From Selenomonadaceae bacterium (lineage in GTDB: Bacteria > Bacillota > Negativicutes > Selenomonadales > Selenomonadaceae), in assembly GCA_017444245.1 (NCBI GenBank), contig JAFSXD010000001.1, forward strand, positions 1-61,049: DNA of 61,049 nt, written 5' to 3'. A model generated the notes under the pieces. It was not told the DNA's origin, did no database searches, and saw only the letters and a program-made list of their open reading frames with translations. The position numbers and the translations under genes were made by a program. Positions 4,970-58,739 of the stretch are shown in pieces (the first letter of the stretch is position 1; every line of letters begins with the position of its first letter).

Positions 4970-5012
4970 AAAAAAAATCGCCGAAGAAAATTTTTCGGCG
5001 AGTGTAAAAAAA
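4970..5012 (-). terminator. rho-independent terminator between convergent genes
   Basis: The stem is tcgccgaa (4978-4985) paired with ttcggcga (4994-5001). An A-run on the plus strand gives a T-run on the minus strand. Confidence 0.6.
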
Positions 5013-6507: not shown

Positions 6508-6954
6508 TTAATGGCGCATGCTAAGTTGCAAACCGATTTCGTCTAAAAATTTTTGTTCCTCCGCAAGCAATGCCTCGTTGTATTCGCGCAAACGTTTTTC
6601 TTTGAGTTGCTCGATACTTTTCACGTACGTCATTAAATCCGTCAGCACTTTCAATTTTTGTTGACGCTCCTGCATTGTCCGCAAAATTAATTGTTGTTGC
6701 TGTTCGATTTGTTCGCGTTTCCAGTTGACGAAGTTCGTGTAAATCATGATGACATCAACGGTAATTGTTTTGCCTTCGGAAGTTCGGGCGGCGTATTCGG
6801 CTTGTCCCGCCTGCAATTCTTGCAACAAAGTTTGCAAATGCGCTCTGTGCTCCTCAAGGCGGCGCGAAACTTCGGCAAATTGAAGTTCTGCCTCATCTTT
6901 TTTTCTTTGCGTGACGTTGAGGAGTGTTTCAAGTTGGAATTTAAATTTTTTCAT
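6508..6954 (-). CDS. fliJ: FliJ-like flagellar export chaperone
   Basis: A 148-aa all-coiled-coil protein that starts MKKFKFQLETLLNV.., the typical FliJ opening. It lies upstream of the SLT and YlxF-like genes. Confidence 0.6.
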   Translation of the reverse strand: MKKFKFQLETLLNVTQRKKDEAELQFAEVSRRLEEHRAHLQTLLQELQAGQAEYAARTSEGKTITVDVIMIYTNFVNWKREQIEQQQQLILRTMQERQQKLKVLTDLMTYVKSIEQLKEKRLREYNEALLAEEQKFLDEIGLQLSMRH

Positions 6955-6966
6955 CGCGGTAAGATT

Positions 6967-7491
6967 TCAAACGAGAACTGCGGCGCGTTTGGCAATTACA
7001 AATTCTTCGACGCGCATTAACATGAAACAGTAGTCGGACAGACGGTTCAAAAAAATTCCGTCGACTTCGTGAACTGCTTCAAAACGTGCAAGCTTGCAAA
7101 AAATTCTTTCGGCGCGGCGCGCAGTTGTACGGGCAAAGTCGATAATCGCGCCTGATTTTGTATTGCCCGGCGTGAGGAAAGATTTCAGCGGCGGCAAAAG
7201 TTTATCCATTTCGTCCATTTCTCTTTCCAAAGTTTTAACGTCGTCTTCGGTGATGAGCGCAGGTTTATTCATGCTTGCAAGGTCCGCCATGAGACGTGGC
7301 AAAATTTTTTGCAACTGAAAAATTTTTTCGCGCACTTCCGCAACGTCCGAAAACGCCCGCGCCATTCCCAGCACAGAATTAAGTTCGTCAACCGTCCCGT
7401 AAGTTTGCACGCGCGGATCGTCCTTGTCAACTCTTTCCCCCGTAAACAAACCGGTCTTGCCGTCGTCGCCGGTCTTCGTGTAAATTTTCAT
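6967..7491 (-). CDS. PduO-type ATP:cob(I)alamin adenosyltransferase
   Basis: It starts MKIYTKTGDDGKTGLFTGERV..YGTVDELNS, the canonical N-terminus. Confidence 0.85.
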   Translation of the reverse strand: MKIYTKTGDDGKTGLFTGERVDKDDPRVQTYGTVDELNSVLGMARAFSDVAEVREKIFQLQKILPRLMADLASMNKPALITEDDVKTLEREMDEMDKLLPPLKSFLTPGNTKSGAIIDFARTTARRAERIFCKLARFEAVHEVDGIFLNRLSDYCFMLMRVEEFVIAKRAAVLV

Positions 7492-7535
7492 TGTTGATCT
7501 CCTTCGTTGAGGATTGTCACGTTGACGCCAAAAAT

Positions 7536-9350
7536 TTATTCAAGCACAAAATTTTCATTCGCCGCGATAAATTTTTCTGCGTCCTTGAAGTTGGGAAAAT
7601 TTTTTTTAATCTTATCGAAGTCCCAATCCCACCACTTAACTTTCTGCAACGCGTCAATAATTTCCTGCGAAAAGCGATAATCAATAATCTGCGCGGGATT
7701 GCCGGCAACTATCGCGTAGGGCGGAACATCTTTTGTGACTACCGCGTTGTCCTCAATTATCGCGCCGTCGCCAATCACAAGCGGATTATCGGCGTCACTT
7801 GCAATTAAAGTTGCATCTGAATTTATTTTCACATCCGAGCCGATTAAAATTTTGTGCACTCCGTTTTGAATTTGAGTGCCTTCAAAATCATAGACGCTGA
7901 CAAAATTTTTTTCGGGCTTGCGGAAAAATTTTACTTTCACGTTGTCCAAAATTGAAGTGTAATTGCCGACGTGCATTTCCCCCAAAACATTTTTGCAACT
8001 GAACAAAATTTTTTTCGCGTAACTTTCTTTGCCAAGAGAAATTGCAACATTCCCGCCGACTAAAAAAATTCTTTGATGAACTGTTCGACTTTCGTCGCTA
8101 AATTCATTCCCTGCAATTTCGCCGTAAGCCATGCCTTCAGCAAAAAATTTTGGGAAATTTAAATTTGGAATTTGAAAAACTCTTCCGTCCAAAATTGCAT
8201 CTTGAGGAATTTGAAATGACTCAAGTATTTTCCGATGCTCATGAAAATTATTTCCCGCCATAACGACAGCTATTTCAAAGGAGGGCGGGTCTATAATTTT
8301 TCCGCCAAGCTTTTCGTAGAAAATAATTTCTCTTCCCTCAACAATCGCGTAGCCGACGATGTTTATAAAATCTTTTTCCTCAAACGGCTTGATGTAATTG
8401 TAAAGTTCATAGTTGAACGGATTCGTACTCCAAAGCAACGTCCTCTTTCCAAATTTCGATTTAATGGAAAGCGTTTCACTCAAGCCGCGTTTTTTCAAAA
8501 ATTCATTGGCAATTTTTACCATGTCGTCGGCAACTTGAAATTGCACTCTTCGTTGAAGATGATCTACAATTTCCAAGTAATCATCTCTGGAATTTACGTA
8601 CTCGCTGTAATTGATTAACTTAACATTATCGCAATCAGCAAATTCTTTTTCCAACAGAGGATTTATTTTTTTTCGTCTGGTCGCCTTGATTATCGAGGCT
8701 TTAGTTTCGTCATAAGCCGTTTCGATACCAAGCATGATAACCAGCAAAACTTTTTCGGGAATCAACGAACGGATTTTTTTGTAATTCTCTACAATTTCTT
8801 CCGGCTCAAGAGGTCCTTCGTATTCAAAGTTTTCACGGAAACGCCGTAGCATTTCGTAAGTATATTTCGCGTCGCAATACCACGCATCTTTTCCTGAAAC
8901 GTAGTCAGCCCACTTTTCTGAATCAGTCAAATCGTCCCAAGCTTTGAAAACTATACGAGCTCCGGTTTTTTTATTCCGATAAACATTCGCGTAAGTGTCA
9001 ACCAACGTGCTCAAGAAAATCACGTCGTAATTTCCGGAAAAAATTTCTGTTTCAAAACTTCTTGCGTCAATGAAAGGAAAATTTTTCGCCATGTCGTTTA
9101 TTTCTTCGGCGGGCAGGTAAGTTGATTCGATTATGTGCACGCTGTGACTTTGGGCGGAAATTAAAACTCCATGTTCGTTTACAAAATTTGTTTCTAAATC
9201 AACTTTGCCTAAGGATTGGAGAATTTGAAGTATTTGCAGAAGATCGCACGGACCTTTCATCAAAATTCGCGGTGCATTTTGCACAGTAATTTTTTCGGCG
9301 TCACTTGCTTGCGAAAAATATTTTTTAAGAGAAATCTCCTCAACCCAAAT
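7536..9350 (-). CDS. C-terminal fragment of a frameshifted multidomain glycan-modifying enzyme (unknown middle region plus left-handed beta-helix acetyltransferase)
   Basis: The frame continues directly from the C9 tract (..IWVEEISLKKYF..). The C-terminus GSDVKINSDATLIASDADNPLVIGDGAIIEDNAVVTKDVPPYAIVAGNPAQII is a hexapeptide-repeat acetyltransferase. The track ORF (to 9461) has a spurious N-terminus. Confidence 0.75.
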   Translation of the reverse strand: MWVEEISLKKYFSQASDAEKITVQNAPRILMKGPCDLLQILQILQSLGKVDLETNFVNEHGVLISAQSHSVHIIESTYLPAEEINDMAKNFPFIDARSFETEIFSGNYDVIFLSTLVDTYANVYRNKKTGARIVFKAWDDLTDSEKWADYVSGKDAWYCDAKYTYEMLRRFRENFEYEGPLEPEEIVENYKKIRSLIPEKVLLVIMLGIETAYDETKASIIKATRRKKINPLLEKEFADCDNVKLINYSEYVNSRDDYLEIVDHLQRRVQFQVADDMVKIANEFLKKRGLSETLSIKSKFGKRTLLWSTNPFNYELYNYIKPFEEKDFINIVGYAIVEGREIIFYEKLGGKIIDPPSFEIAVVMAGNNFHEHRKILESFQIPQDAILDGRVFQIPNLNFPKFFAEGMAYGEIAGNEFSDESRTVHQRIFLVGGNVAISLGKESYAKKILFSCKNVLGEMHVGNYTSILDNVKVKFFRKPEKNFVSVYDFEGTQIQNGVHKILIGSDVKINSDATLIASDADNPLVIGDGAIIEDNAVVTKDVPPYAIVAGNPAQIIDYRFSQEIIDALQKVKWWDWDFDKIKKNFPNFKDAEKFIAANENFVLE

Positions 9351-10234
9351 GGGGGGGGGTAGGAATTTAGTTGTGATGCGACTTCTCCTACAGTTGTAAT
9401 TTGTGGAAAATTTAATTTTGCGTAAATGAATTGTTCGACGCCCATGCCGAGCACGCGGCACGAAAATAAAAAATGTTGCAGACGATTTTCCACCGTGTCA
9501 AGGCAATAAAAACCGACTGCACCATAATCACCGAATTTGTCACGCACAAAAATCAATGCGCAATTATAGCGATCGTCTTCAACCAATTTTTCCAAATCAG
9601 ATTTTGAATCGCGGCGTTTCGTGAAGTTCAGCTGATTCGTTCGCGCAACCAACTCCGCAATGCGCTCAAGATTTTTTCTGCAGTCATGGGAAATTGCAAG
9701 CTGAATGTTGGCACTCTGTAAAAATTCTTCGTTAGACGCGGCGGATTTTTTTTCCGATTGCTTTTTCTCCAAAATTTTGTACCGGTTCAATCGTTCGTGT
9801 TTGGCGTCAGAAATTTTCAGCGAATCGGCCGCGCTATAAAGTTCGTCAAGATTTTTTGCGTCAAGCGTCATAATCTCCGGCAAATAAAATTTCGCCTCGC
9901 CCAAATTGCTTGAGTTGTCGTCGACGAACAAAACATTTTCTGCGCGAAGTCCCATATCGTCAAGCATGGACTTTATACGTTCGCCCTTAGGCGTCCAATC
10001 TATTGACGGAAAAACGAATAAATCCCAAATGTCCCACGCGATTAATTTTTCTTTGACGGGCTGAAAATCATTTTTTGAACAAATTGAATTGATAATGCCT
10101 GCGTCCGTTAATTTTCGTAGTGTTGAAAAATTTTTTTCAATCGGTGTAACGGGAATTTCTGAAGTTATCGTCCCCGCCCAAAATGTTTCGTCCAAATCCC
10201 AAATTACGAGCTTAACTTTTGTGATGTCAAACAT
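9260..10234 (-). CDS. N-terminal fragment: FkbH-like HAD-IIIC phosphatase domain
   Basis: Motifs seen: MFDITKVKLVIWDLDETFW (DxDxT), LFVDDN, RTNQLNFTKRR, DKFGDYGAVG and FLFSCRVLGMGVE. The last ~27 codons after the C9 tract are out-of-frame tail. Confidence 0.8.
   Translation of the reverse strand: MFDITKVKLVIWDLDETFWAGTITSEIPVTPIEKNFSTLRKLTDAGIINSICSKNDFQPVKEKLIAWDIWDLFVFPSIDWTPKGERIKSMLDDMGLRAENVLFVDDNSSNLGEAKFYLPEIMTLDAKNLDELYSAADSLKISDAKHERLNRYKILEKKQSEKKSAASNEEFLQSANIQLAISHDCRKNLERIAELVARTNQLNFTKRRDSKSDLEKLVEDDRYNCALIFVRDKFGDYGAVGFYCLDTVENRLQHFLFSCRVLGMGVEQFIYAKLNFPQITTVGEVASQLNSYPPPFGLRRFLLKNIFRKQVTPKKLLCKMHREF
9351..9359 (-). repeat. homopolymer C9 (minus strand) that splits the FkbH-HAD/acetyltransferase gene
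   Basis: There are nine G on the plus strand. The upstream frame reads ..SQLNSYPPP and the downstream frame ..PPPIWVEEISL. C10 or C7 would fuse the two frames. Confidence 0.9.
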
Positions 10235-10236
10235 TT

Positions 10237-12940: not shown

Positions 12941-13536
12941 AAAGTTTCGTACTCTGTCAATAGTTTCAGCATATTCGGTGGTGTAAAGCAGTTTCTGCCC
13001 CCCCCCCCCGCGTAGAAAAGCGACGGGTCAGGTAGAATCACGTTTTGAAATTTGGTTGCGTGTGTAATTATGTTTAATCTCGAAAGGTCTACTTCCAAAA
13101 CTTGAAGAAGTTTTACAAAATTGGGAATTATGTTCTGTCCCATTAAATTTACTGCCAGCTTACAAGTTGAAAAGTATCTTTTGTAAGGATCGCTAGTCAA
13201 AAACCACAATCTTTTTATGTGATCTGTCAGACAATGCCCCCAAACAGAATTAAAAGTTCCAAGAAAAATCACAGTTTCTGGACTAATTCGTAAATCTTCA
13301 TTTGGAGTGTAAACGTCGCCAATGCCTTCATGGACTGAAGTTCCTTCTACGAAATTTCCTTTGCCGTCAATGATGCCACCGAAACCATTTAATCCAAGAC
13401 GACCATCTAAATCTAAGTGTGGCAAAATTGTTCCATTCTCGATAATTCGGAAATGCAATTTTTTATCGGAGAAATGAGTTTCGTTTAGCTTGTCGCCAAA
13501 AAATTCTCTGTTATACAAACCGTCGTAGTTTACCAT
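12871..13536 (-). CDS. N-terminal fragment of the GT61/DUF563 glycosyltransferase
   Basis: FLGTFNSVWGHCLTDHIKRLWFL is a GT61-type GH..D...RL motif. The tail after the G12 tract is out of frame. Confidence 0.7.
   Translation of the reverse strand: MVNYDGLYNREFFGDKLNETHFSDKKLHFRIIENGTILPHLDLDGRLGLNGFGGIIDGKGNFVEGTSVHEGIGDVYTPNEDLRISPETVIFLGTFNSVWGHCLTDHIKRLWFLTSDPYKRYFSTCKLAVNLMGQNIIPNFVKLLQVLEVDLSRLNIITHATKFQNVILPDPSLFYAGGGGRNCFTPPNMLKLLTEYETLCRKIFRHCRKKSSTFFTVLVNK
12998..13009 (-). repeat. homopolymer G12 (minus strand) that splits the GT61 gene
   Basis: I counted twelve C on the plus strand. The upstream frame reads ..LFYAGGGG then goes out of frame. G13 or G10 would join it to QKLLYTTEY.. 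Confidence 0.9.
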
Positions 13537-51901: not shown

Positions 51902-52031
51902 CGATCCATCGATCTATCGATCCAACGATCTAACTTATGTGACCAATTTTCGGTTTGTAATCGCTACTCAAAAAATTTTTCGCTTCCCGACTATCCATCG
52001 ATCCATCGATCTATCGATCCAACGATCTAAC
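51838..52031. repeat. 2 x 97-bp tandem duplication covering the mqnA start, its RBS and the GATCGAT-type repeat
   Basis: 51838-51934 and 51935-52031 differ at one position (cacttcc vs cgcttcc). This explains the two track ORFs that both start MTNFRFVIATQKIF. Confidence 0.95.
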
Positions 52032-53862
52032 TTTGAATCCAAAGGAGTTGATATTTTTCCATTTGTTTCAAAACGTGATCGAAGAAAGGTTTTGAAGTGT
52101 CGGGGTGCGCCAAGAAAAGTGAATAAGTTTTTTCAAGCGGAACTATCAAAAGCTTTGCTTGCTCCGTCAAAACTTCGGCAGAAATAATTGTGCGGGGATT
52201 TTGAATAAAAACATTTTCGTTAATCCAACCGCCTTTAGAAATGATATCCAACGCCTTGAACCAACCGTCGCCCTTGTCCAAACTTCGCGCCAACTTTCCT
52301 TCGACGACGAAAATCAAATTTTCCCTCAAAATATCCCCGTAAATTCTGTCGCCTTCAAATTTCGTGACAAGTTGAGTGCTGTCCGCGAAGAAAGCCAACG
52401 TGCCGCCGCCGCTGCCTTGAAGTATCGGATGCTGTACGATGAAGTTTGAAATAGTTTTTTTGTCGTCCGAAGATTGAAATTGCCCGCCTTCTTCAGTTTC
52501 GATTTTCATTTGGTGCATGAGTTTTTCCATAAAAGTTTTGAACGGCGAATGCCAATGCACGAGCATTTGACGCAAGACGAGATTGTAAATTCGCGCGAAA
52601 CGTTCACCGGCGTTTTGGAAAAATTTATTGGCGTCGTAGAGGAAAGTTAAAGATAAAGTTGTTTCCGCGTACTGAAAATAAATTCCGAGCTTGACGCCCT
52701 GCGGATCCCATGAATTTGTCGTGACGACTGCGCCAAAAGGTTCTGCCTTCGTCTCTGAATAAGTTGCCTCCTTCGTCCCCTTGAAGTCGAGGAAACTAAG
52801 GAAGTGATCAAAAGTTTTTCCCTTCGTCAATTCTTGGAGCGTGTCCCAATCAGAAAAACCGTAGGGTTGCGACACGACGAGTTGACGAAACTGTTGCGTT
52901 ATGATTTGTTCGATTGTCATATCGTCGGGACTTTTTTGGCGCACGGGAATGACATTGAACGCGGACTCATTGCCCTTTGAACCGGCACTGAATTGACAGA
53001 AAATCACGTCGTCAAGCGTGCGCGTTGACTGCAGGAAAAATCCCCATGCACTTTGCAAAATCGTCATCAACATTACGCGGCTTGACTTTGCTTTTTCGCG
53101 CAGGTCGGACAAAATATCTGCGGGAATATTTTCACGAAACGCCTTCGGATTGTACGGCGCATTTGAATGTTTCGCGTAAGGTAACGTCGGCATTTGCGGT
53201 AAATCTTTCAAAAGTTTTGACCAGTAATCGCGAATTGCCGTTTCAACATTTTTTTGTTGTGTGCCGCCGGAAATTTTTTTGACGCGCTTAAATTTTTCTA
53301 TGCCCAATGCCGAAAGGAAAAAATTTTTTGGATCGAAGGCATTTGAAATTAACCGCGACATCGTGACGAGGACAGCAAATTCATTTTCTTCCGTCTTTAA
53401 GATTGTGAATCGGATTAAATTACCGCGCTTCACGTCGAAATTAACGCGGCGGTCGGCTTCCATGATTTTCGTTAAAGTTTCGTCAATTTCTTCAGGGTCT
53501 GCTTGCGAAAGCGCGCGATAAACGACATCTGGCAAAGTGCGCCGCTCAACGAAAATAACTCTGACGGTTCGGTTTTCGAGTTCGCAAAAATTTGAACGAA
53601 AGGTGTCGTCACTTTTAACCATGTCATGGACAACGCGATTAAATTTTATCGGCGTGATGTCGCCTTGAACTTTGTAAAGCGTCTGCACAGAAAAATAGGG
53701 CGATATAAATTGTTTCTGCGCGAAGAAAACTTTTTCGTCCGTCGTCAACTCCTCAACTTTTTCAATTTGGTTGGGATTGTAGCCGACAGAGCCGGTAAGT
53801 TGCCGCCCATAAACTGTCTCCAAAATATTTTTTTCGGTCGCCGTTAATTTCAAAATGCTCAT
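52027..53862 (-). CDS. condensation (NRPS C)-like domain lacking the HHxxxDG histidines, fused to a cNMP-binding-like C-terminal domain
   Basis: FAVLVTMSRLISNAFD sits where HHxxxDG is expected. RDYWSKLLKDLPQMPTLPY and MTILQSAWGFFL are C-domain-like. The C-terminal LIFVVEGKLARSLDKGDGWFKALDIISKGGWINE is a CAP-type beta-barrel pattern. Confidence 0.55.
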   Translation of the reverse strand: MSILKLTATEKNILETVYGRQLTGSVGYNPNQIEKVEELTTDEKVFFAQKQFISPYFSVQTLYKVQGDITPIKFNRVVHDMVKSDDTFRSNFCELENRTVRVIFVERRTLPDVVYRALSQADPEEIDETLTKIMEADRRVNFDVKRGNLIRFTILKTEENEFAVLVTMSRLISNAFDPKNFFLSALGIEKFKRVKKISGGTQQKNVETAIRDYWSKLLKDLPQMPTLPYAKHSNAPYNPKAFRENIPADILSDLREKAKSSRVMLMTILQSAWGFFLQSTRTLDDVIFCQFSAGSKGNESAFNVIPVRQKSPDDMTIEQIITQQFRQLVVSQPYGFSDWDTLQELTKGKTFDHFLSFLDFKGTKEATYSETKAEPFGAVVTTNSWDPQGVKLGIYFQYAETTLSLTFLYDANKFFQNAGERFARIYNLVLRQMLVHWHSPFKTFMEKLMHQMKIETEEGGQFQSSDDKKTISNFIVQHPILQGSGGGTLAFFADSTQLVTKFEGDRIYGDILRENLIFVVEGKLARSLDKGDGWFKALDIISKGGWINENVFIQNPRTIISAEVLTEQAKLLIVPLEKTYSLFLAHPDTSKPFFDHVLKQMEKYQLLWIQS

Positions 53863-54061
53863 CTCCGTTACTGAAAACTTATAGAAAGTTGTAAACTCTT
53901 ATGTTTCATTCCTGATTCATCGCGTCCGCTTTTGCCGAAGCTACTCACGTTTGGTGTAACGCTCCACAGGCTTCAATTCCCCGCTAACGTACGGGTATTT
54001 TTTCAATCAGCTCGCGTATCGTTTTAAATTTATCGCCGCTTGTAAATCCCGGTCTATTTCG

Positions 54062-54278: not shown

Positions 54279-55961
54279 TCATGCCAAAACTTTTTTCAAG
54301 CCGTCAATGTATTCTTCCGTCGACGGCAAATAGATGTGTTGCCTGCTCTCAGCTACAGGTTCGGCAATTTCCGCAATAAGGTTGTATGCAAATTGCGGGC
54401 GATCTTTGGATGCGTACATGTCCTTCAAGGTATCGCCGTCCAACGTCTTACTAAGTTTATCGGCTATCGTGTCAGCTTCCGTTTTGTTAAGAATAAAATC
54501 AACTGAAACTGTCTGAAATTCATCTTCCAAAATCTTGCACATTTTCTTGCTGTCATCTTCGATAATTTCATCGGTTACAGCTTTTGAAACTTTGCTTGCC
54601 GCAGTGCTCGATAACCAAGCAGCAATTAACATTCCTACTGGTCCAAAGGGAGCACCCAACATCGCGCCGCCAATTCCGCCTGCGACTCCTGCGCCAGAGT
54701 TCACAACATTTTTGAAAAGTTGAGACGCCGAAATTCTGCCGCGAAGAATATTTATCACGTCGCCCGCTGACATAATCGCAACCGTTGCAATTCCCGTGAC
54801 AGCATTCCCGCGCAGTAACTTAGACGCACTTTTCATTGCCGCCGCCCCGTAAATACTCGTGCCTTCTCTGAAAGCATTCACCAAATGTGCTGACATCTTC
54901 GGACCCATAGCTTTAACGAGTGCATCGGACGCAGGAATAAGCATTGTGTTGAAGCCCGCCTTCGTAATTTGTCCCGCTACAATCGAACCTGCCCATGCCA
55001 TGCCGCCGACTTGCAAGCCCGCTTTAACCGAATTTTCCAAAGCAACTTCAAAAGATTCACCGTTCCAAATGCAAACCGCAAAATTTATCGCCGCAGAAAT
55101 TCCGCCACTGTACGCGCCAATTTTTATTCCGTCTATCGCGTCATAAGTCAATGATTCGATTGTTCCCGCCTTCGCAATATTTTTTGCCTGCTCGTAAGTC
55201 ACATTGCCTTTGCGGATAATGTCTTCAGCTTTTTTGACGCCGCGAATTTGTCCTCTATCAATTCGACTTTGCATTGCTCTAACCGCGTCGTCGTACTTAT
55301 CGGCGGGAACTTCAATTTGCATTGGCGAACCGTCACGATTGTAATAGCGAAATTCTCCGTTGTGGAAACATTCTTGAACACACTTTGAGCCGGTGGCACA
55401 GTACTTGCTTTGAATGTTCGCGCCGTTTACGAGTCTGTCCGCACCGTTTTTAGCGTTGTCGTCGCCGACAATGTGTGCGTCTTTGCCTGTCATTCTGTCG
55501 TACAAGTCATTGGCGCGTTCTGCGGCAAAACCATGCCCCTTTGAACCGTGAAATTTTTCTTCAAAGTAAACCTTTTCTGTACCAACAAAAGCACCTTGTG
55601 CAAGTCCTGTATTTTTTGCGCCGCGTGAAGGTTCATTATTTGAAAAATGAAACCCTTCCGCACTTTCTTCTTCCTCTTCAAGATCAACAAAATAGCCTTC
55701 TTCGCCGAACCTGCTATCTACGAGTCTCTTCAAAGTTTTCACTGCCTCGTATTCGTCAGGTCCATCCGCCGCGATAGTAATTTCCGTGCCTTTAGTCAAG
55801 CCCATGCTCATAATCATGAGAATACTTTTCGCGTCAACTCTTTTGCCTTTCGCTTTAATCCAAACTTTTGATTTGAACTTGGACGCAGTCTGCACGAACA
55901 CCGACGCGGGGCGCGCATGAATACCGGTTTTGTTTTCGATAGTAGTTGTAAGCTCAAACAT
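54279..55961 (-). CDS. HPr (PTS phosphocarrier) domain fused to a ~470-aa domain of unknown function with a Gly/Ala-rich membrane-active-looking C-terminal half
   Basis: The N-terminal 88 aa align to HPr: KTGIHARPASVFVQTASKF (His15), VDAKSILMIMSMGLTKG (Ser46), EITIAADGPDE. Next comes KGHGFAAERANDLYDRMTG..GDDNAKNGADRLVNGANIQSKYC, followed by GGISAAINF.., AGLQVGGMAWAGSIVAG.. and GAGVAGGIGGAMLGAPFGPVG. Confidence 0.8.
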   Translation of the reverse strand: MFELTTTIENKTGIHARPASVFVQTASKFKSKVWIKAKGKRVDAKSILMIMSMGLTKGTEITIAADGPDEYEAVKTLKRLVDSRFGEEGYFVDLEEEEESAEGFHFSNNEPSRGAKNTGLAQGAFVGTEKVYFEEKFHGSKGHGFAAERANDLYDRMTGKDAHIVGDDNAKNGADRLVNGANIQSKYCATGSKCVQECFHNGEFRYYNRDGSPMQIEVPADKYDDAVRAMQSRIDRGQIRGVKKAEDIIRKGNVTYEQAKNIAKAGTIESLTYDAIDGIKIGAYSGGISAAINFAVCIWNGESFEVALENSVKAGLQVGGMAWAGSIVAGQITKAGFNTMLIPASDALVKAMGPKMSAHLVNAFREGTSIYGAAAMKSASKLLRGNAVTGIATVAIMSAGDVINILRGRISASQLFKNVVNSGAGVAGGIGGAMLGAPFGPVGMLIAAWLSSTAASKVSKAVTDEIIEDDSKKMCKILEDEFQTVSVDFILNKTEADTIADKLSKTLDGDTLKDMYASKDRPQFAYNLIAEIAEPVAESRQHIYLPSTEEYIDGLKKVLA

Positions 55962-56019: not shown

Positions 56020-56049
56020 ATTCTACCCCCCCCCTCAAAGATTTGTCAA
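56020..56049 (-). promoter_or_regulatory. promoter of the HPr-fusion gene with a G9 tract in the spacer
   Basis: On the minus strand: TTGACA (56049-56044), aatctttga, G9, then TAGAAT (56025-56020). The spacer is 18 nt. A 58-nt leader ends in AAGGAGG and the ATG at 55961. Confidence 0.65.
56026..56034 (-). repeat. homopolymer G9 (minus strand) inside the promoter spacer
   Basis: I counted nine C on the plus strand (56026-56034). Confidence 0.95.
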
Positions 56050-56093: not shown

Positions 56094-56432
56094 TTAGTTT
56101 GCAAAATACTCCGCGATTTTCCAGCCCGCCGATTCAACCATTGCAACGGTCAAGATGCTTGGATGTATCATTGGACATGAAATTGGAATCCACATTCTCT
56201 TGGACAGGAATTGTTTGTTAAGTTTCTCCTGCGCAATCTTTGTTGCAAGAGTTTCTGAAATTGTAACATTGGAAACTTTTACCAACGCCATCGTCATTGT
56301 CGTAAGTGCTTTTTCGTCGACCGCGTCAAGCTCATAGGGTATCATTATATGATTTTTCCCCGACAACACGTCACGCGCATGGTGTTTAATGACGTCTTCG
56401 CACTGATGTTTTTCGGCTTTTGTCATCGCCAT
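56094..56432 (-). CDS. small DUF697-like paralog A (112 aa)
   Basis: MAMTKAEKHQCEDVI.. ..MVESAGWKIAEYFAN. It shares its termini and leader with paralog B. The DUF697 assignment is from memory of the family pattern. Confidence 0.65.
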   Translation of the reverse strand: MAMTKAEKHQCEDVIKHHARDVLSGKNHIMIPYELDAVDEKALTTMTMALVKVSNVTISETLATKIAQEKLNKQFLSKRMWIPISCPMIHPSILTVAMVESAGWKIAEYFAN

Positions 56433-56640
56433 GAAACATTCCTCCTCTGTGTGACTGAAAAATAATTTACCTGTGCATAAGATACAACAATCGCAATTTC
56501 ATTTTGTAATTGTCATTTCCCCATTCAGAAAATTTTTCACGGTTTAATAAATGTGAAGGAGCGCACGTCCTTGTACGCCCCCTCAACCCAAGTTCAAGTG
56601 CTGAACAGTATCCGTTTTCATGAAGAAATTTTAGTGGAGA

Positions 56641-56829
56641 CTATTTCATTTGTTTCAATTTTTCATCGTAGTATTTCACTCTGGCGTAATGTCTTTTTGC
56701 AATGCCATAGTGTGGACCTGCCTCAACGTCGTTGGACGCATTTTTAGCCGCCGCCCATTCGCGTTTGGCATTTTTCAAAGCACGATCCCGCGCACTTTCC
56801 GCAAGTTCACGCTTTCTTTCTTCCGTCAT
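56641..56829 (-). CDS. small charged helical protein (62 aa)
   Basis: MTEERKRELAESARDRALKNAKREW.. with an AAAGGAGGTG RBS. The track ORF starts further upstream, inside paralog B. Confidence 0.5.
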   Translation of the reverse strand: MTEERKRELAESARDRALKNAKREWAAAKNASNDVEAGPHYGIAKRHYARVKYYDEKLKQMK

Positions 56830-56833
56830 ATTT

Positions 56834-57184
56834 TCACCTCCTTTGATTCGCAAAATTTTCCGCGATTTGCCAACCCGCCGATTCAATCATTGTGACAGTC
56901 AACGCTGCTGATGCAATGTTTCCAAGTCCGGGAAAAATTTTCACGAACTCTGAAACAACCATTTTGCCTGCCAATTCTTTCAACGCGTTAACCGCCGTAG
57001 TTGCGGCAAGAGTTTCTGACATTGAAACGTTGAAAGTGTTTGCCAATGCCATCGTCATCGTCGTAAGTGCCGCCACGTTAATCGGCGTGCCGACTCCAGG
57101 TATCAGTGAACCACCAATGACAGCCCACGCGTGACCGTGAATGATGTCTTCGCACTGATGTTTTTCGGCTTTTGTCATCGCCAT
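56834..57184 (-). CDS. small DUF697-like paralog B (116 aa)
   Basis: MAMTKAEKHQCEDII..GGSLIPGVGTPINVAALTTMTMALA..FPGLGNIASAALTVTMIESAGWQIAENFANQRR. Confidence 0.65.
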   Translation of the reverse strand: MAMTKAEKHQCEDIIHGHAWAVIGGSLIPGVGTPINVAALTTMTMALANTFNVSMSETLAATTAVNALKELAGKMVVSEFVKIFPGLGNIASAALTVTMIESAGWQIAENFANQRR

Positions 57185-57393
57185 GAAACATTCCTCCTCT
57201 TTGTGACTGAAAAAATAATTTACCTGTACATAAGATACAACAATCGCAATTTCATTTTGTAATTGTCATTTCCCTATTCAGAAAATTTTTCACGGTTTAA
57301 TAAATGTGAAGGAGCGCACGTCCTTGTACGCCCCCTCAACTCAAGTTCAAGTGTTGAACAGTCTCCGTTTTCGTGAAGAAATTTTAGTGGAGA

Positions 57394-57450
57394 CTATTTC
57401 ATTTGTTTCAATTTTTCTTCGTAGTACTTTCTACTTCGGCGTATCTTTTG
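57394..57450 (-). pseudogene. decayed remnant of a second copy of the 62-aa gene
   Basis: The 3' end ctatttcatttgtttcaattttt.. is identical to 56641-56663. After that it diverges, with an internal deletion. Confidence 0.55.
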
Positions 57451-57461
57451 CCGTCCTGTCG

Positions 57462-57821
57462 TTAACTCCTTTGATTTGCAAAATTCTCCGCGATTTGCCA
57501 ACCCGCCATTTCAACCCTTTTATAAGCCGTTGGGTCAATCACCATAGGGATAAAACAAAATGGGAACATCAGAGGCTTCATCAACCCTGTTATCAACCCT
57601 GAAACGAAGGGCAATTTAGCCAATTCTTCTTCGACGTTTTTCAGCGCGTTAACCGCCGTAGTGTTAGCAAGAGCTTCCGTCATCGAAACGTTGAAAACTT
57701 TTGCAAGAGCCAGCGTCATTTTTGTGAGTTCTGCCAAATTCACAGGCGCGCAACCAATCACAGCGGCACACTTGCAAATGATGTCCTTGCACAATTTTTT
57801 TTCAGCCTTTGTAATTTTCAT
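57462..57821 (-). CDS. small DUF697-like paralog C (119 aa)
   Basis: MKITKAEKKLCKDII.. ..VEMAGWQIAENFANQRS. Confidence 0.6.
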   Translation of the reverse strand: MKITKAEKKLCKDIICKCAAVIGCAPVNLAELTKMTLALAKVFNVSMTEALANTTAVNALKNVEEELAKLPFVSGLITGLMKPLMFPFCFIPMVIDPTAYKRVEMAGWQIAENFANQRS

Positions 57822-57909
57822 AAAAACTTCTCCAATCGATTAAGTGAAAAGTTATCTTCGACGCGCCCCGCGCATTTTGTACGAGGACGCGTTTTTTTTC
57901 TTCCGTCAA

Positions 57910-58269
57910 TTATTGACGTCTTTGATGCGCAAAATCTTCTGCCATTTGCCAGCCCGCCAATTCAACCGTTGTGCATGTCAACGAAACCGGCAAAGTCTCT
58001 CCCCTGTTGGGAAATTTTTCTATGTACTCTCTAACATTGATTCTGCGTTCAACTTCTTTCAGCATGTTAACCGCCGTAATTGTTGCAAGAGTTTTAGTCA
58101 TTGAAACCTTAAACATTTTCGCCAACGTCCGCGTCATCTTTGTAATTTCTTCCAGATTAACGGTAGGACCAAATTTTGTTTTGAGCGATCCGCCGATGGA
58201 ATGCTTTGTGTGATAGCGAATGATTTGTTCACATTTTTGACGTTCGGCTTTGGTAATCAACGTTCTCAT
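57910..58269 (-). CDS. small DUF697-like paralog D (119 aa)
   Basis: ..ITKAERQKCEQII.. ..VELAGWQMAEDFAHQRRQ. Confidence 0.6.
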   Translation of the reverse strand: MRTLITKAERQKCEQIIRYHTKHSIGGSLKTKFGPTVNLEEITKMTRTLAKMFKVSMTKTLATITAVNMLKEVERRINVREYIEKFPNRGETLPVSLTCTTVELAGWQMAEDFAHQRRQ

Positions 58270-58315
58270 GAAAAATTCCTCCTGTAATTCAGAAAAGTTT
58301 TACCGACAAAATTTT

Positions 58316-58579
58316 TTACTGTGAAAATTTGTCAACGAGCAAGTCGAAAATATTTCTTGCCAAATCACGCGGCGTGTGTGACAAATCCGCGCCCTTCGAC
58401 CTGTTGTCGTGTTTGCACATCGCCTGCAAGTTCCAATCGCTGTCCGGTCCGCCGTATTTTTGCGGGATAATGTGATCCACGTCCATTTCGGACTTTCTGA
58501 AATTCTTTCCGCACTCGGGGCATTTGTGCCAGCCGCCGTGCGTTTTGTGCGAATCGAAGTAGTCTTTCCTGTAACCCAT
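58316..58579 (-). CDS. mini HNH endonuclease (87 aa)
   Basis: CPECGKNF..MDVDHIIPQKYGGPDSDWNLQAMCKHDNRSKG. The ATG at 58579 follows an AGAGGAGGAAA RBS. Confidence 0.8.
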   Translation of the reverse strand: MGYRKDYFDSHKTHGGWHKCPECGKNFRKSEMDVDHIIPQKYGGPDSDWNLQAMCKHDNRSKGADLSHTPRDLARNIFDLLVDKFSQ

Positions 58580-58739
58580 AAAAAAATTTCCTCCTCTGTA
58601 AATCACCAAAAAATTCATTTAAAGTTGCTTGCAATATTCAGTTTTCAAAGAACCCTTCAAAAAAGTTTTTACTTTTCTGTTGTCGAGCGTCGAAGTATTT
58701 GTCGCCGACCGCTGTTGAAACCTCCTACTGTAATAATAA

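Follow-up and report, generated by a model that had tools for sequence, protein, structure and literature searches.

The stretch analysed here, a contig of 61,049 nucleotides from a Selenomonadaceae bacterium (JAFSXD010000001.1 of assembly GCA_017444245.1; hereafter the window), raises a question at one place on its minus strand: why do two long open reading frames (ORFs), one of 324 aa at 9260..10234(-) and one of 641 aa at 7536..9461(-), meet at a run of nine C, and are they two genes, one broken gene or one gene that can be switched on and off? An earlier note on the window had proposed the last of these, translational phase variation of a single gene of ~900 aa encoding a glycan-modifying enzyme, and had asked whether orthologues carry the run or encode the two halves as separate genes. 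Its starting point, that the C9 run at 9359-9351 is the sole reason for the overlap of the two ORFs, is confirmed by the sequence and the ORF list. Around the tract (9351..9359, minus strand) the minus strand reads AAATTCCTA-CCCCCCCCC-ATTTGGG, the coding-strand context being CAACTAAATTCCTA-C9-ATTTGGGTTGAGGAG. The frame upstream of C9 reads VASQLNSYPPPFGLRRF; it runs GEVASQLNSYPPP and then, past the tract, continues out of frame as FGLRRF...HREF before a stop (9260..9350, minus strand). The frame downstream of C9 reads PPPIWVEEISLKKYF. Addition of one C (C10) or removal of two (C7) fuses the two frames, as had been predicted, into a single ORF of 899 aa (7536..10234, minus strand), and the gene as sequenced is indeed OFF, C9 being an out-of-frame length. 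This split gene has a GC content of 39.7%, against 46-48% in its neighbours. In the NCBI record its 324-aa N-terminal fragment and a 582-aa C-terminal fragment are entered as two separate proteins, which, if the reading argued below is correct, should be annotated as one phase-variable gene.

The tract is no chance feature. Runs of G or C in the window number 17 at length 5, two at length 6 and none at lengths 7 and 8, and are then followed by three outliers of 9, 9 and 12 (in plus-strand letters G9 at 9351-9359, C12 at 12998-13009 and C9 at 56026-56034), whereas only ~0.01 runs of at least nine are expected in the whole window, both by geometric extrapolation and by Markov models of orders 1-4. 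The C9 is therefore longer than base composition predicts; lying within an 899-codon frame, it exceeds the cut-off of at least seven G/C that PhasomeIt applies to homopolymer phase-variable loci (PMC6321876), and a gain of one repeat unit, to C10, restores a long ORF for a bona fide protein. Promoter and terminator scans inside the split gene gave only background level, and Rfam gave no match at this locus.

That the two ORFs belong together is indicated by homology: queried with the fused sequence, a collection of 5.8 billion clustered proteins returned ~3,500 matches. Most of these are ~608-aa proteins of the 'HAD-IIIC family phosphatase / FkbH-like' type, which align with residues 1 to ~590 of the fused protein at 38-44% identity and cross the tract site colinearly as single polypeptides, so that the halves are not separate genes in these relatives; by this comparison the 324-aa and 641-aa ORFs are one gene. 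In a 48-sequence alignment of the family the tract, which encodes Pro-Pro-Pro (P293-P295), falls in a short variable linker directly before the near-invariant W297-I298 (family consensus PxWIN), so that the downstream frame makes sense from the first codon onward. AlphaFold2 (AF2) models residues 1-590 at a pLDDT of ~90, linker included (81-93 for residues 281-300). None of the ~608-aa homologues in the alignment has poly-Pro at the linker, and no G/C run longer than six was present in the gene at any of the eight homologue loci fetched. The 899-aa architecture is a fusion of this two-domain FkbH-SGNH enzyme with an acetyltransferase, and its full-length form is unmatched in the collection searched.

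Four loci from other assemblies cover the tract region, giving, with the window, five alleles from three deep lineages. L052 (Logan SRR19524241; 97.7% nucleotide identity, with flanks identical to those of the window) carries C11; L001 (SRR19524240; 95.7%) carries C11 and one extra base just upstream; L002, from a wolf-gut metagenome (71.5%), carries C9; and L058 (SRR30827663), which represents the third deep lineage, carries C10. At amino-acid identities of 50-98% all of these orthologues retain poly-C at the exact site while the flanks diverge, and the answer to the question about orthologues is therefore that five of five loci have the run, at lengths of 9, 11, 11, 9 and 10. The length varies between close strains with constant flanks: the window (C9) and L052 (C11) share identical 36-nt flanks, and the alignment of the window with L001, 5,597 bases long, contains just 3 gap bases, all of which a comparison of the flanks assigns to the tract region. 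Between the window and L002, identity at 4-fold degenerate sites is 0.48 and the flanks of the tract have diverged (aaattccta-C9-atttgggtt in the window, aaatcctccg-C9-gagtatgtg in L002); the probability that nine C would be retained by chance is 0.11 if Pro-Pro-Pro is obligatory and ~0.001 (0.0014) if, as in the ~608-aa family, the linker is free of constraint. Given that the tract has been kept while its surroundings diverged, this comparison points to selection for the repeat itself. The window and L052 would be in frame at C10, L001 and L058 at C9 or C12, and L002 at C8 or C11; each of the five alleles is OFF and each is one base from an in-frame length, a correction of +1 nt being needed in the window and L001 and of -1 nt in L052, L002 and L058. 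The full three-module architecture is restricted to a small clade: an alignment of the fused proteins, run against GTDB species genomes and JGI metagenome contigs, yielded no further orthologues, only distant relatives consisting of the ~608-aa family or of the acetyltransferase part alone, and an exact look-up of the 324-aa N-terminal fragment found no other contig.

Both halves of the gene appear to be maintained. Nei-Gojobori dN/dS (the ratio of non-synonymous to synonymous substitution rates) is 0.11-0.18 before the tract and 0.12-0.36 over ~590 codons after it, dS between lineages is 0.8-1.5, and no other stop or frameshift was found in ~900 codons in any of the five loci. Outside the tract, in other words, the gene is intact and under purifying selection in all five, which is consistent with phase variation.

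An anomalous, positionally conserved and length-variable tract, flips of frame between alleles, an intact and selected gene and sibling tracts in promoters and glycan genes together fit slipped-strand translational phase variation in the sense established for Campylobacter and other bacteria (PMC6321876), and this reading, supported as it is by the orthologue tracts, the selection and the sibling tracts, is considered well supported on a comparative basis but not proven (rough probability 0.75). The C9 run would be a hypermutable homopolymer, that is a contingency locus, inside one 899-codon gene, in which slipped-strand mispairing at replication gains or loses a C. At the in-frame length (C10 here) a three-module enzyme would be made, while at an out-of-frame length translation would end 30 codons past the tract and leave an FkbH-only polypeptide of ~300 aa; switching would in turn alter surface antigenicity or phage-receptor structure within the population. 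We infer the slippage mechanism, its reversibility, the chemistry of the enzyme and the biological pay-off. The nearest proxy for a frequent and reversible change in length within a clonal population is the G9/G8 difference that forms the only gap between two contigs, L059 and L060, of another Selenomonadaceae species.

Four observations weigh against this reading. First, an ON allele was found in none of the five assemblies (0/5 in frame), so that only the OFF state is seen among them, with a probability of ~0.13 for five OFF of five if the frames are equiprobable. Second, the C-terminal part is less conserved than the N-terminal part, at 50-62% against 78-85% amino-acid identity; this faster change may reflect relaxed selection, or it could reflect intermittent expression, the latter being inseparable here from ordinary differences in constraint. 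Third, no ~900-aa relative was found among the 5.8 billion clustered proteins. Fourth, no polysaccharide biosynthesis cluster surrounds the split gene, which stands alone as a single-gene, low-GC island flanked by ndk and by the gene for a PduO-type cob(I)alamin adenosyltransferase; given that it lies outside any glycan cluster, its substrate is a guess.

An alternative, possible though unlikely, is that neither outcome is a loss of function: the tract would be a switch of domain composition between two active states, and part of an unusually dense poly-G/C phasome of uncultured Selenomonadaceae in the ruminant gut. Since the tract lies in a linker after a complete FkbH domain, OFF alleles might still make a functional stand-alone FkbH and, in the lineage of the window, might also give a translationally coupled SGNH-acetyltransferase through a TGATG overlap, whereas the ON state would give the fused three-module enzyme; OFF in five of five alleles would then be the selected working state in the gut. 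The density of poly-G/C tracts, with three in the 61 kb of the window and further polymorphic ones in relatives, is in keeping with such a phasome.

It could also be argued that the true tract is an in-frame C10, mis-called in assembly or sequencing, and that the gene is intact and nothing switches. Consensus errors classically occur at homopolymers, the window comes from a metagenome assembly, and in a related contig, L057, the sequence stops 12 bp short of another poly-G tract (the promoter tract described below), which suggests that assemblers struggle there. However, this is improbable for several reasons: first, the tract is out of frame, and in different frames, in each of five assemblies made independently from at least four read sets. 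Second, the 5.6 kb aligned between the window and L001 hold many A/T runs of 8-9 (A8-A9, T8-T9) and are free of indels outside the tract region, and thus generic homopolymer error is not a property of these assemblies. Third, L059 and L060 differ in length only at a G tract over 14.5 kb. Contig names of the k141_ and NODE_/scaffold types, moreover, suggest short-read assemblers and not long reads prone to error.

The same alleles might instead represent a decaying pseudogene, permanently inactivated by the frameshift and with the tract incidental. All five alleles being OFF, the location of the gene in an accessory low-GC island that is missing in one related species and the lower conservation of the C-terminal part would agree with this. 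Nevertheless decay is very improbable, and an ancient pseudogene is rejected, given that no locus has acquired another lesion in ~900 codons despite a dS of 0.8-1.5, that dN/dS downstream of the tract is 0.12-0.36, and that every lesion falls at one and the same hypermutable site, a single step from ON; the alleles are furthermore OFF in different frames, and the lesion was therefore not inherited from one ancient event. Of equally low probability is recoding, whereby slippage of RNA polymerase or ribosomal frameshifting on the C run would yield the full-length protein from OFF DNA; the state of the DNA would then matter less, or the site would serve as a programmed recoding signal. Every allele needs a shift and yet shows purifying selection, and long homopolymers are known slippage sites. 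However, slippage is best documented for A/T runs, and programmed recoding sites have a constant length and frame relation, whereas here the tract varies in length among the alleles and the correction required is +1 nt in two and -1 nt in three; a fixed programmed frameshift is rejected on these grounds.

Finally, that a stand-alone FkbH gene and an SGNH-acetyltransferase gene genuinely overlap here is the least credible explanation and is rejected: although the split coincides with a domain boundary, the OFF N-terminal product of ~300 aa has the size of a canonical FkbH and the OFF stop of the window overlaps an ATG in a manner compatible with translational coupling, thousands of homologues span the split point as single polypeptides, the 30 codons from the tract to Met326 align with the family (near-invariant W297 included), Met326 is replaced by Leu in the lineages of L002 and L058, and the upstream stop varies in position by allele to give N-terminal fragments of 298, 303 and 324 aa. 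The overlap itself is a TGATG at 9262-9258 (minus strand), in which the OFF-frame TGA overlaps the ATG of Met326 in the downstream frame. With Met326, the start chosen by gene callers, not kept in L002 and L058, a conserved internal start is unlikely.

Turning to the product, domain assignments from NCBIfam and searches against PDB sequences largely bear out what had been proposed for a phase-variable enzyme. The predicted FkbH-like HAD-IIIC domain is recovered at residues 7-274 (9413..10216, minus strand), where TIGR01686 (FkbH) scores 165.6 bits against a cut-off of 146.65 and TIGR01681 (HAD-IIIC) 36.5 bits against 35.75; it comprises a HAD-IIIC phosphatase part with D13 and D15, followed by a part with Cys259 (FSCR). 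D13, D15 and C259 are columns at least 90% conserved in the 48-sequence alignment, and we take their catalytic roles to be those known for FkbH/OzmB. The predicted C-terminal hexapeptide-repeat acetyltransferase is likewise found: residues 597-899 (7539..8447, minus strand) form a module of an alpha/beta part plus a left-handed beta-helix, homologous along its full length to stand-alone proteins of ~310 aa, and the XAT-like helix at residues ~792-891 (7563-7862, minus strand) has the C-terminal region typical of the Vat/CatB/ApmA class, with phmmer matches to ApmA (E 1e-19), CatB and VatD over residues 793-889. The equivalog cut-offs are not reached (Vat 84 bits against 300, CatB 75 against 350, ApmA 79.5 against 550), only the last ~100 residues matching, and Pfam gave only sub-threshold matches on the fused protein.

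Between these lay what had been described as a ~450-aa unknown middle region; the description was sound but can be sharpened, the region resolving into an SGNH-like domain, which goes with FkbH in a widespread two-domain family, and the acetyltransferase module with its alpha/beta and beta-helix parts. Fold matches to the full-length model were confined to HAD phosphatases, which agrees with the FkbH assignment; the absence of others is due to poor modelling of the last 300 residues, for which just 2 homologues could be aligned. The middle domain, residues 296-590 (8466..9350, minus strand; conserved in the ~608-aa family, AF2 pLDDT 88), was therefore modelled alone, and Foldseek then returned matches of modest significance (E 3e-4 to 5e-3, TM normalised to the target ~0.5-0.57) to PAF acetylhydrolase (PAF-AH), GDSL lipases, Bacteroides GDSL-like acylhydrolases, carbohydrate acetylesterases and the C-terminal domain of the O-acetyltransferase OatA, which suggests an SGNH/GDSL-like fold. 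Throughout the 48 sequences, which share the colinear FkbH and C-terminal domains, C330, F388, Y419, E505, N525 and H559 are invariant. In SGNH enzymes the nucleophilic Ser follows the first strand, and in the model of the middle domain Cys330 follows the first strand; the two may therefore be equivalent.

In FkbH/OzmB a glyceryl unit from 1,3-bisphosphoglycerate is loaded as a thioester. By analogy, the FkbH module would load such a glyceryl unit on C259 as a thioester, the SGNH-like acyl-transfer domain, with its invariant Cys and His, would pass it on to a sugar hydroxyl, and the hexapeptide acetyltransferase module would contribute acetylation as a third activity. The most probable role of the 899-aa enzyme is the decoration of a surface polysaccharide with glyceroyl and/or acetyl groups, both of them non-sugar substituents. 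No carrier-protein (ACP) domain was found among the 20 neighbouring products scanned.

A role in modifying a glycan or surface polymer, the remaining element of the original proposal, is favoured by the homologues and not by the locus itself, where the gene stands alone outside a glycan cluster. The genomic context of the ~608-aa family was examined for two homologues: one, in a Selenomonadaceae genome, lies in an LPS-like cluster with GT2, GT4, GT9, a DegT aminotransferase, an epimerase, a GHMP kinase and a nucleotidyltransferase, and the other, in Ruminococcus gnavus, in a Wzx/Wzy cluster with pyruvyl- and acetyl-transferases. These settings support a glycan role for the two-domain family.

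The closest parallels are the poly-G/C phase-variable surface-glycan genes of Campylobacter jejuni, among them Cj1295 and the flagellar-glycosylation and capsule loci (PMC8355987, PMC3068675). As there, a gene for a glycan-modifying enzyme carries a G/C homopolymer of at least seven in its ORF, the frame is switched by changes of one base, and there are several tract loci per genome, including tracts located in promoters. Unlike C. jejuni, a pathogen of the Campylobacterota, the host here is a gut commensal of the Negativicutes (Selenomonadaceae); the enzyme architecture differs, the tract occupies a linker between domains a third of the way along the gene, whereby OFF leaves a complete first domain, and switching is here predicted from sequence comparison. 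With the glyceryl-loading enzymes FkbH and OzmB the split gene shares N-terminal 275 residues that pass TIGR01686, the HAD DxD and the conserved Cys, and it differs in the fusion to an SGNH-like domain and an acetyltransferase and in having no ACP gene among the neighbours scanned. It resembles the ~608-aa HAD-IIIC/FkbH-like family of Bacillota and Bacteroidota polysaccharide loci in sequence and invariant residues, and adds to it the C-terminal acetyltransferase module, the poly-Pro linker and the long C run. An FkbH domain in a glycan context is known from cj1302 of the C. jejuni flagellar glycosylation locus, where neither cj1302 nor FkbH is reported to be phase variable (PMC7099621); this was the only mention found in a literature search on FkbH in glycan chemistry. 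In a gut commensal, poly-G slippage is reported as an ON/OFF switch at pilus loci of Bifidobacterium breve (PMC9187656), the target there being a sortase-dependent pilus and the switching having been measured by deep sequencing, unlike the comparative evidence here. For Helicobacter canadensis, homopolymer changes are reported that switch the attached C-terminal sequence and do not abolish the product (PMC2823697). The FkbH-only and full-length outcomes predicted here, and the alternative GNAT tails of L059 and L060, resemble that case, although any function of the truncated product of the split gene would be conjectural.

Two further tracts of unexpected length are present in the window. A split gene of the GT61 family of glycosyltransferases (Pfam PF04577; 12341..13536, minus strand; GC 37.1%) carries G12 at 12998-13009, ON being G10 or G13; in L054 and L055 the tract reads G10TG, a single substitution at equal total length that is also OFF, and the C-terminal half is intact. 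The third outlier, G9 at 56026-56034, fills half of the 18-nt spacer of a promoter-like TTGACA-18 nt-TAGAAT (56020..56049, minus strand; 11/12 consensus matches), downstream of which lies a gene for a 560-aa fusion protein with an N-terminal HPr domain (54279..55961, minus strand). In L056, a contig that is 99.6% identical, this tract is G10, and the arrangement looks like transcriptional phase variation. A similar element is found in a relative: L052 contains at 6860-7200 a cassette, missing from the window (where it maps to ~4971-5003), in which TTGACA-N18-TAAAAT, with G11 in its spacer, precedes a hydrophobic ORF of 54 aa, with two terminator-like hairpins bracketing the cassette, and which may encode a phase-variable small membrane peptide or toxin. 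In the other Selenomonadaceae species, represented by L059 and L060 (metagenome-assembled genome (MAG) GCA_029009635.1 and a Logan contig, 99.993% identical over 14,559 bp), the sole indel (L059:6736 / L060:6737) affects a GNAT acetyltransferase gene of a polysaccharide cluster, where a tract at the 3' end measures G9 against G8, and it alters the C-terminal tail of the product (184 against 195 aa). No G/C run of at least seven was found in 21 kb of a further Selenomonadaceae MAG, GCA_017554235.1.

Homopolymer phase variation of surface glycans is textbook knowledge for Campylobacter, Helicobacter, Neisseria and Haemophilus and, to our knowledge, is hardly documented for anaerobic gut commensals; in the literature searched, no paper links it to Selenomonas or the Negativicutes. 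The mechanism is thus well known, and it is the lineage (uncultured gut commensals of the Selenomonadaceae, Negativicutes) and the target enzyme that are new instances. If confirmed, ruminant-gut Selenomonadaceae would possess a contingency-locus repertoire covering polysaccharide decoration, a glycosyltransferase and at least one promoter, with a bearing on phage-host dynamics, immune (IgA) recognition and strain-level heterogeneity in rumen and gut microbiomes. We know of no characterised function for the FkbH-SGNH two-domain family, which has more than 3,000 members in polysaccharide loci, and a search for enzymes that attach glyceroyl-type substituents to glycans could reasonably start from it.

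As to the wider setting, the prfC product of the window is 94% identical to that of GCA_017554235.1; related contigs of the metagenome series of that MAG (prefix XIEF21-1) are probably of ruminant-gut origin, and another related contig comes from wolf gut. The interval between ndk and the adenosyltransferase gene, in which the split gene lies, is a variable slot (7492-10236 in the window, compared with L050:12042-15280); in GCA_017554235.1 the same slot holds genes for a 334-aa unknown protein and for DUF4258, MNT/HepT and PIN toxin-antitoxin proteins. Likewise, prfC is preceded by hisG in GCA_017554235.1 and by the GT61 gene in the window. A lone FkbM-type methyltransferase gene (PF05050; 16057-16743, minus strand; GC 42.9%) lies between pyrimidine-biosynthesis genes (pyrK-like and carB) and is another single-gene accessory insertion, possibly related to glycan modification. 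The sole Rfam match in the window is a RAGATH-18 RNA motif (RF03064) at 53909-53970 (minus strand), scoring 73.8 bits against a gathering threshold of 44.9, between the HPr-fusion gene and a 611-aa ORF (52027..53862). On the upstream side of the promoter tract, 56094-58618 (minus strand) holds a tandem array of four small paralogues, each encoding 112-119 aa, whose products share MxxTKAEKxxCExxI...AGWxIAExFAN ends; DNA segments within this array are repeated at ~95% identity, an HNH-domain ORF (58316..58618) adjoins it, and the arrangement resembles an immunity-gene array or a polymorphic toxin locus.

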